A stretch of 10,019 bases of DNA from a virus (lineage: Duplodnaviria; Heunggongvirae; Uroviricota; Caudoviricetes). Made by a program: the position numbers and the translations under genes. Below, piece after piece: positions 3,403-3,633 of this stretch; within the stretch, counting starts at the first letter, position 1, and the number at the start of each line of letters is the position of its first letter. The stretch lies in the IMG/VR virus record IMGVR_UViG_2579778989_000006; one strand, given 5' to 3'. The notes beneath the pieces are model-generated. The model worked only from the letters and a program-made list of their open reading frames with translations, ran no database searches and was not told where the DNA came from.

Positions 3403-3477
3403 TGCCCCTTTAGCCCTAATGGTCAGAGCGAGAGGTTAATAACCGCCAGGTCGCCGGTTCAAACATGGCAGGGGCAC
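3403..3477 (+). tRNA. tRNA-like element, probably a degenerate tRNA pseudogene (tRNA-Ile2/LAU-like body)
   Basis: Perfect 7-bp acceptor stem (TGCCCCT 3403-3409 with AGGGGCA 3470-3476) and a TTCAAAC T-loop, but the D stem and anticodon stem have multiple mismatches, the anticodon loop is TTAATAA, and no CCA is encoded (CGAA follows). Overall resembles the E. coli tRNA-Ile(LAU) gene as I recall it. Confidence 0.35.
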
Positions 3478-3480
3478 GAA

Positions 3481-3557
3481 GCGCTGTTAGCTCAGTTGGA
3501 CAGAGCAATTGCCTTCTAAGCAATCGGTCACTGGTTCGAATCCAGTATGGCGCACCA
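3481..3557 (+). tRNA. tRNA-Arg (anticodon UCU)
   Basis: Manual cloverleaf: acceptor GCGCTGT/ATGGCGC (two G-U pairs), D arm GCTC-AGTTGGACA-GAGC, anticodon arm ATTGC-CTTCTAA-GCAAT (anticodon TCT), variable loop CGGTC, T arm ACTGG-TTCGAAT-CCAGT, discriminator A and encoded CCA. 77 nt. Confidence 0.85.
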
Positions 3558-3558
3558 T

Positions 3559-3633
3559 GCGGTCATCGTATAATGGCTATTACCTCAGCCTTCCAAGCTG
3601 ATGATGCGGGTTCGATTCCCGCTGGCCGCTCCA
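3559..3633 (+). tRNA. tRNA-Gly (anticodon UCC), glyT-like body
   Basis: Manual cloverleaf: acceptor GCGGTCA/TGGCCGC, 3-bp D stem GTA/TAC with loop TAATGGCTAT, anticodon arm TCAGC-CTTCCAA-GCTGA (anticodon TCC), variable TGAT, T arm GCGGG-TTCGATT-CCCGC, discriminator T, encoded CCA. Body closely resembles E. coli glyT as I recall it, with changes in the acceptor stem. Confidence 0.8.

Follow-up and report, generated by a model that had tools for sequence, protein, structure and literature searches.

A partly decayed prophage tRNA array in Escherichia coli that ends in a phage-type tRNA-Gly(UCC), probably a rare-codon supplement

We analysed a 10,019-nucleotide (nt) stretch of DNA, hereafter the window (IMG/VR virus record IMGVR_UViG_2579778989_000006, Caudoviricetes), which carries an array of three transfer RNA (tRNA) elements: a tRNA-Ile pseudogene, a tRNA-Arg(UCU) gene and a tRNA-Gly(UCC) gene (Table 1). 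All three lay where an initial annotation of the bare sequence had placed them, and for the Arg and Gly genes ARAGORN and the Rfam tRNA model (RF00005; gathering score 29) agreed on boundaries and anticodons. The elements are tightly packed, with spacers of 1-4 nt. Positions 247-10019 were 100% identical to the chromosome of Escherichia coli JKHS016; in such identical sequences the two live tRNA genes are already annotated by RefSeq. The gene order of a lambdoid late region and the identity to the JKHS016 prophage both confirmed the prophage setting that had been assumed. Judged from its sequence, the window is a Shiga toxin (Stx)-phage-like, stx-less lambdoid late region of an E. coli prophage that is now defective.

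The third element, tRNA-Gly(UCC), was called by ARAGORN and scored only 2.2 bits below the host-type glyT sequence in Rfam (64.9 bits). It is identical to K-12 glyT (tRNA-Gly2, UCC) at 73 of 75 bases, and the only differences, U for G at position 5 and G for C at position 68, form the two sides of acceptor pair 5:68, where the G-C of the host gene becomes a U·G that is still paired. It shares with glyT the anticodon loop, the D and T arms, U73, CCA and the first four acceptor pairs, and the gene ends in TCCA, so that CCA is encoded. The predicted fold was the same as that of glyT, and slightly less stable (−25.7 versus −28.4 kcal/mol). The element had been described as a UCC anticodon on a near-glyT body with an altered acceptor stem, and this description held. 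Host glyT sits in the thrU-tyrU-glyT-thrT-tufB operon, whereas the window gene sits in a prophage array. It is a functional-looking gene, predicted to read GGA and GGG.

The second element was likewise called by ARAGORN, as tRNA-Arg(UCU). It was identical to argO of Stx phages at 70 of 77 positions and to K-12 argU at 60 of 77. Compared with argO, pair 4:69 is C-G and not U-A, pairs 5:68 and 6:67 are now U·G and G·U (adjacent acceptor-stem wobbles), and the discriminator has changed from G to A; pairing is kept at all stem positions, and the gene ends in ACCA, with CCA encoded. The bacterial arginine identity set comprises A20, C35, U/G36 and A/G73 (PMC9976931, Table 1). Read against that table, the sequence contains the arginyl-tRNA synthetase determinants A20, C35, U36 and A73, with A20 placed by the D loop GTTGGAC. 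The same tRNA-Arg sequence was found unchanged in four viral contigs. As initially annotated, this is a clean tRNA-Arg(UCU), a functional-looking gene of the argO type that is predicted to read AGA.

The first element matched the Rfam model over its full length, at 21.6 bits. Because it fell below the gathering score, it was filed as a pseudogene and not as a tRNA family member. ARAGORN did not call it in a default run on the window; with thresholds lowered to 90%, it was reported as 'tRNA-Ile(aat)' at 3403-3477. Its closest intact homologue is the tRNA-Ile2(CAU) of E. coli SHP24 (comparison locus L011), with 65 of 78 aligned positions identical and 13 different. Relative to this homologue, C34 has become A, which turns the anticodon CAU into AAU; a single mismatch sits in the D stem and the D loop is altered, two mismatches lie in the anticodon stem, and the T stem is broken by loss of the G53-C61 pair. 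The element thus lacks both the CAU anticodon and the intact cloverleaf of a tRNA-Ile2. Its 3' end reads ACGA, with CGA in place of CCA, and its minimum-free-energy fold is not a cloverleaf. These features agree with the initial view of a decaying tRNA-Ile with broken D and anticodon stems and no CCA; the element gives no canonical tRNA in either program at its standard threshold. The acceptor stem had been called perfect, which was a small overstatement: a paired helix is present, GCCCCT/AGGGGC, but its 3' side is one base short, leaving 6 base pairs in a shifted register. By sequence comparison the element is a dead copy of a phage tRNA-Ile2.

The neighbouring genes in Table 1 are given in window coordinates from the RefSeq annotation of the identical JKHS016 sequence. 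Positions 1-246 lie outside the 100% match, and the window probably comes from a different strain that carries a mosaic of the same prophage. In JKHS016 the prophage adjoins a tRNA-Ser gene next to hyaA. It has a truncated portal gene that runs up against a tail-tip gene, likewise truncated; the genes for its tail fibres are pseudogenes, and the methylase too is cut short. The DNA-methyltransferase gene ends at about 2717 and is replaced by an AT-rich segment (2718-3405) with an opposite-strand open reading frame (ORF); relatives have a full-length methylase gene at this position. The opposite-strand ORF is very rich in AUA and ACA (6 AUA and 5 ACA in 95 codons). Near the end of Q, a promoter-like site (1795-1823, overlapping the Q end) precedes a stem-loop terminator, AAAAAACCGCCTGGCGGCGGTTTTTT, at 1873-1898 that is strong and bidirectional; the two are a candidate pR'/tR'-like pair. 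The small RNA STnc100, which a 2026 preprint links to the PasD small RNAs, stands between the tRNA array and the esterase gene, and a terminator-like hairpin follows it on the minus strand (4156-4175). Just after STnc100 in two related loci (L008 and L012, 3714-3764, minus strand), in a place comparable to that of this hairpin, there was a sub-threshold match to the anti-small RNA AsxR (44.5 bits; gathering score 63).

Table 1. Features of the window and the basis on which each was placed.
Feature	Position	Strand	Basis
DUF968 protein	to 753		RefSeq (JKHS016)
RusA	766-1125		RefSeq (JKHS016)
Antiterminator Q	1122-1805	+	RefSeq (JKHS016)
Candidate late promoter TTGCAA-17-TATATT and downstream stem-loop terminator	1795-1898	+	Consensus scan only
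Small ORF	2020-2223		RefSeq (JKHS016)
Truncated DNA-methyltransferase pseudogene	2370-2717		RefSeq (JKHS016)
Opposite-strand ORF	2789-3076 as annotated; 2789-3130 by ORF listing	−	
tRNA-Ile2 pseudogene (ileZ/ileX type, CAU mutated to AAU)	3404-3476	+	Sub-threshold Rfam match; then CGA in place of CCA
tRNA-Arg and tRNA-Gly	3481-3633	+	RefSeq (JKHS016)
tRNA-Arg(UCU), argO-like, intact, encoded CCA	3481-3557	+	ARAGORN; Rfam 68.7 bits (E = 1.1e-13)
tRNA-Gly(UCC), glyT-like phage allele with U5·G68 for G5-C68, intact, encoded CCA	3559-3633	+	ARAGORN; Rfam 62.7 bits (E = 4.9e-12)
STnc100 prophage small RNA	3937-4147	+	Rfam, full-length, 140.8 bits
SASA-family esterase	4359-6293		RefSeq (JKHS016)
Holin	7008-7223		RefSeq (JKHS016)
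Lysozyme	7827-8360		RefSeq (JKHS016)
Rz-type lysis gene	8659-9126		RefSeq (JKHS016)

The array shares its position with the ileZ-argN-argO array of Stx phages (933W/Sakai type; L009, Stx2a_1447), after Q and the methylase gene and before STnc100 and a nanS-p-type esterase gene. In L009 the order is methylase gene, ileZ-argN-argO, stx2AB, STnc100 (3985-4200, just after stxB) and esterase gene, and because this order matches, the window was read as an Stx-phage-type late region without stx. The initial placement of the array at the Ile/Arg/Arg position of Stx phages was therefore right. Its composition differs: the Stx-phage set is Ile(CAU), Arg(UCG) and Arg(UCU), while the window lacks argN (UCG) and the stx genes, its first gene is of the same tRNA-Ile2 type but dead, and its last is a glyT-like tRNA-Gly(UCC). 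A search of the literature available to us on ileZ/argN/argO, and on ileZ with Stx, returned nothing.

Another parallel in composition is offered by other Enterobacterales phage arrays, of the form [Ile2]-[variable]-Gly, in which a glyT-derived tRNA-Gly stands last in a short, tight array, as in the window. The window gene fits this pattern, lying outside the native operon, last in its array and behind phage-type partners. E. coli phages phi467, SerU-LTIIb and JLK-2012, among others, carry Thr(UGU)-Gly(UCC) arrays with the glyT-derived gene last; those of phi467 are exact copies of host thrU and glyT, whereas the window tRNA-Gly differs from glyT. The viral contig L056 holds an intact Ile-Arg(UCU)-Gly array, although its Arg gene is built on an argN-type scaffold. 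Yersinia phages YeP1-3 and Morganella phage IME1369_01 carry U5 in tRNA-Gly, as the window does. The IME1369_01 gene is identical to the window gene at 75 of 75 positions, and YeP1-3 have the same sequence except for a U5-A68 pair. The YeP1 array stands between Q and the lysis genes, that of IME1369_01 between ninB and a DNA replication gene instead.

We then scanned for this U5 allele with an exact pattern in which position 68 was A or G and the other 73 bases were fixed. The IMG/VR viral contigs contained 67 such loci (56 with A68 and 11 with G68), and species-representative genomes contained 22 (20 and 2, respectively). The genome matches came from about 10 genera and included Morganella, Buttiauxella, Izhakiella, Yersinia nurmii, Yokenella, Kluyvera, Edwardsiella, Pseudescherichia, Dryocola, Scandinavium and one record titled Chryseobacterium. 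None of the 67 viral and 22 genome loci stood in the native thrU-tyrU-glyT-thrT context, and none of the genome loci had Tyr(GUA) and Thr(GGU) beside the tRNA-Gly, as that operon does. The U5 tRNA-Gly was almost always last in a short array, typically behind a CAU tRNA plus one or two variable partners. Of the 67 viral loci, 51 had a Q or lysis-protein homologue nearby; a tblastn search with the Q and lysis proteins of the window and YeP1 gave a match at only 6 of the 22 genome loci, which supports a prophage context for those 6. These distributions indicate that the U5 allele is a widespread phage-borne glyT lineage and not a local mutation of the window prophage. Capture of the allele from a host with a native U5 glyT was also considered and was set aside with 0 of the 22 genome copies in the native operon, although the exact pattern misses diverged native copies.

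The middle gene of the arrays at viral and genome loci with a glyT-like tRNA-Gly (L017-L204) has an argN-like body, CCGCCAyTAGCTCA...GGTTCGAG...GGTGGCGGnCCA, with first pair C1-G72. Its acceptor, D and T arms are conserved and its anticodon arm is hypervariable. ARAGORN called such genes Arg(tct), Lys(ttt), Gln, His, Leu, Ser, Cys(aca), Tyr(ata), Phe(aaa) or Ile(tat), and returned '???' for those with an abnormal anticodon loop (reported anticodon of 2 or 4 bases). The variable arm could reflect relaxed selection on one arm or a non-decoding role.

In a second viral scan the acceptor could vary at positions 4-7 and 66-69, while the remaining 67 bases had to match. Among the 112 matches listed, 59 had the host-type acceptor (G5-C68, C6-G67), 35 had U6-A67, 10 had U5-A68, 3 had U5·G68, and 5 were single-step intermediates. 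By these sequences, the lower acceptor stem is where phage glyT copies vary, mostly by compensated changes.

The initial annotation had proposed that the acceptor-stem change could give the tRNA-Gly a different aminoacylation identity, or that the gene could serve as an integration target. Many synthetases do read identity in the acceptor stem. The E. coli glycine identity set, however, consists of U73, G1-C72, C2-G71, C35 and C36 (2023 review, PMC9976931), and all five elements are intact in the window gene. The change is limited to pair 5:68, which stays paired, and the resulting wobble is U5·G68 and not the G3·U70 that alanyl-tRNA synthetase reads (PMC9976931). Since the listed determinants of glycyl-tRNA synthetase (GlyRS) are all intact, a change of amino-acid identity was not supported and was set aside as unlikely, and the tRNA should still be charged with glycine by GlyRS. 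The integration proposal fared no better in the window: no integrase, repeat or inserted element was found after the tRNA-Gly, and the spacer of about 300 nt between tRNA-Gly and STnc100 has the same length in relatives; an attachment site here was rejected on these grounds. A copy in Buttiauxella gaviniae (L086) gives the proposal some footing, as this U5-A68 gene lies directly upstream of an integrase-like gene (397 amino acids). We regard the proposal as a whole as very improbable for the window. The U5 lineage may serve as an attachment site elsewhere.

In L086 (5113-6619) the U5-A68 tRNA-Gly is preceded by an argN-like tRNA and followed by the integrase-like ORF, with a ttcA-like ORF adjoining; the integrase and ttcA labels come from reading the protein sequences. 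This layout is usual for an island inserted at a tRNA gene. The U5 allele occurs in several Buttiauxella species.

Pair 5:68 is also a position read by toxins. The antiphage toxSAS FaRel2 selects tRNA-Gly and tRNA-Thr via G1-C72, C2-G71, G4-C69 and purine-5:pyrimidine-68, and a flipped 5:68 pair abolishes modification (PMC11559606). AtaT, a GNAT toxin of E. coli, acetylates Gly-tRNA-Gly and depends on the run G4G5G6:C67C68C69; a C5-G68 flip in tRNAfMet brings its activity down to 25-50% (PMC7595197). A phage tRNA-Gly with a pyrimidine at 5 and a purine at 68 might thus be a counter-defence isoacceptor, one that remains a GlyRS substrate, escapes acceptor-stem-reading toxins, whether aimed at phages or serving addiction, of the toxSAS (FaRel2) or GNAT (AtaT) type and lets translation of glycine codons continue once such a toxin has been triggered. 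Precedents exist in the anticodon-loop escape tRNAs, although the known cases evade anticodon-loop nucleases and the window tRNA-Gly differs in the acceptor stem. The tRNAs of phage T5 evade the tRNA-targeting defences PARIS and retron systems (cited in PMC11559606), and like the window gene they are phage isoacceptors that differ from the host tRNA at a toxin-read position. The phage allele alters exactly the pair that is a determinant of FaRel2 and part of that of AtaT, with the GlyRS determinants untouched; it is kept in phages of about 10 genera and was never found in the native glyT operon; and 53 (47%) of the 112 matches listed differ from the host type at 5:68 or 6:67, mostly in compensated form.

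Other observations make the toxin explanation improbable. In 102 of 107 arrays the phage tRNA-Thr(UGU) that resides alongside retains the acceptor stem of host thrU (A5-U68), irrespective of the Gly allele. The Thr acceptor stems being unchanged, FaRel2-like pressure on both substrates is not visible, and a FaRel2-like co-selection on Thr is not supported. Host-type G5-C68 is the commonest acceptor in phages among the matches listed, and occurs in about 850 E. coli genomes. FaRel2 is of Firmicute origin, and no matching toxin was identified in the present hosts. TacT, whose recognition uses U73 and G71 (PMC9976931), would be unaffected by the 5:68 change. Finally, 5:68 and 6:67 lie outside the GlyRS identity set and are therefore free to drift by compensated change.

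To place the array among its relatives, we surveyed 5426 complete E. coli genomes. A 281-nt region that includes the dead Ile was present in 6 of them at no less than 98.9% identity, and Arg-Gly pairs in about 23; the Arg-Gly segment (3481-3660) occurred at 98.9% identity or more in nine E. coli genomes. Thr(UGU)-Gly(UCC) pairs of the phi467 kind were found in about 850 of the 5426. The composition had been called unusual, which is a relative matter: the Arg-Gly pair is rare, the Thr-Gly pair far commoner. Related loci carried Ile-Thr-Arg-Gly (L011), Ile-Arg-Gly (L002 and the viral contig L056), Thr-Arg-Gly (L003), or the 3' half of Ile ahead of Arg-Gly (L007, L008 and L012). Identity between the window and L011 shifts from 76% to 99% at about 3473, and homology with L008 begins at 3437. 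Homology breakpoints between related prophages thus lie at or inside tRNA genes, and the arrays have evidently been reshuffled by recombination at short conserved tRNA sequences. The initial suggestion that the tRNA-Gly is a recombination target receives weak, generic support from these breakpoints.

Two further structures were observed in relatives. In L006 (E. coli MFDS1022581), near 3011-3242, a further-decayed remnant of this array lies next to an integrase pseudogene, with yccA on one side and tRNA-Ser/hyaA on the other. It consists of a dead Ile with the CTAATGG D-loop change of the window, an Arg, and a Gly without CCA; the tRNA-Ser/hyaA junction is common to this remnant and the JKHS016 prophage. 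In L007, L008 and L012 (about 2943-3045) and in L003 (2829-3057), a sequence like the 5' part of STnc100, namely GCATGGTGAATCCCCCTCAGCGGTGGG, has been joined to the 3' half of tRNA-Ile upstream of tRNA-Arg. These fused stretches gave sub-threshold scores of 26.7-43.6 bits with the Rfam STnc100 model and occur besides a full STnc100 copy downstream.

We next compared codon usage in the annotated JKHS016 prophage genes with that in 22 kb of flanking chromosomal genes. Per 1000 codons, the prophage and host values were 8.9 and 1.4 for AGA (p = 3e-9), 9.6 and 3.8 for AUA (p = 9e-5), 15.8 and 9.4 for ACA (p = 0.002), and 14.0 and 9.6 for GGA (p = 0.03). Of the three codons that the initial annotation had proposed to check, AGA and AUA were thus enriched, and GGA modestly so. 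The four tRNA species of this array family read AUA, ACA, AGA and GGA, codons that all end in A and are rare in E. coli. The tRNA genes of lambdoid phages downstream of Q have been read as rare-codon supplementation (PMC3636060).

We consider the array an ordinary, partly decayed prophage tRNA cluster that is best explained by rare-codon tRNA supplementation, with a probability of roughly 75%. What the data show are the sequence identities, the structure scores, the genomic setting, the distribution and the enrichment of codons; expression, charging and benefit are inferred. Judged by gene order, the tRNA genes would be transcribed with the Q-dependent late transcript, from which host tRNA-processing enzymes would excise them. 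The released tRNAs would top up small host pools for A-ending codons, which are commoner in phage and horizontally acquired genes. The tRNA-Gly belongs to a phage glyT lineage with a compensated 5:68 change, U-A in most members and U·G here. Recombination at or within tRNA genes would reshuffle array composition and so give this rare combination, and the Ile member would have been lost because the prophage no longer makes particles and decays.

Several findings weigh against supplementation. In a consensus scan of the + strand directly upstream of the array, no promoter-like site reached the threshold, and the opposite-strand ORF, in its longer form (2789-3130), stands between the candidate late promoter and the tRNAs. 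The GGA enrichment is only 1.5-fold. The prophage cannot finish a lytic cycle, and therefore any benefit to late translation would be historical or the host's. Several E. coli relatives have damaged tRNA-Gly copies (Rfam 39-52 bits): L007 shows a C2-to-A change, the T stems of L002, L003, L008 and L012 are mismatched, and L006 lacks CCA. Selection on the array in E. coli lysogens therefore looks weak, although the window tRNA-Gly is the best preserved copy among these relatives. The whole array might accordingly be inert, of no benefit to host or phage, its Arg and Gly genes looking intact only since there has been too little time to decay. The defective prophage, the dead neighbouring Ile copy, the progressive damage in relatives (which includes a C2-U71 mismatch in the tRNA-Arg of L003) and the two adjacent wobble pairs in the acceptor stem of the window tRNA-Arg are all consistent with such a relic. 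However, the window tRNA-Gly matches the Morganella phage copy at every position and scores within about 2 bits of host glyT. The Arg-Gly segment is well conserved in the nine E. coli genomes, the identical tRNA-Arg recurs in the four viral contigs, and the stem differences from argO and glyT all keep pairing. An inert array is thus rather unlikely, although it is a more serious competitor to supplementation than toxin escape or altered identity.

As a case of rare-codon supplementation the array is routine: tRNA clusters downstream of Q in prophages reshuffle and decay. The changed pair 5:68 coincides with a published determinant of tRNA-Gly-targeting toxins, which makes acceptor-stem counter-defence by temperate phages concretely testable; if true, this would give the anticodon-loop escape tRNAs of lytic phages their first counterpart based on the acceptor stem. 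The seemingly altered tRNA-Gly is a conserved phage allele found over many enterobacterial genera, which corrects the earlier inference drawn from its acceptor stem.

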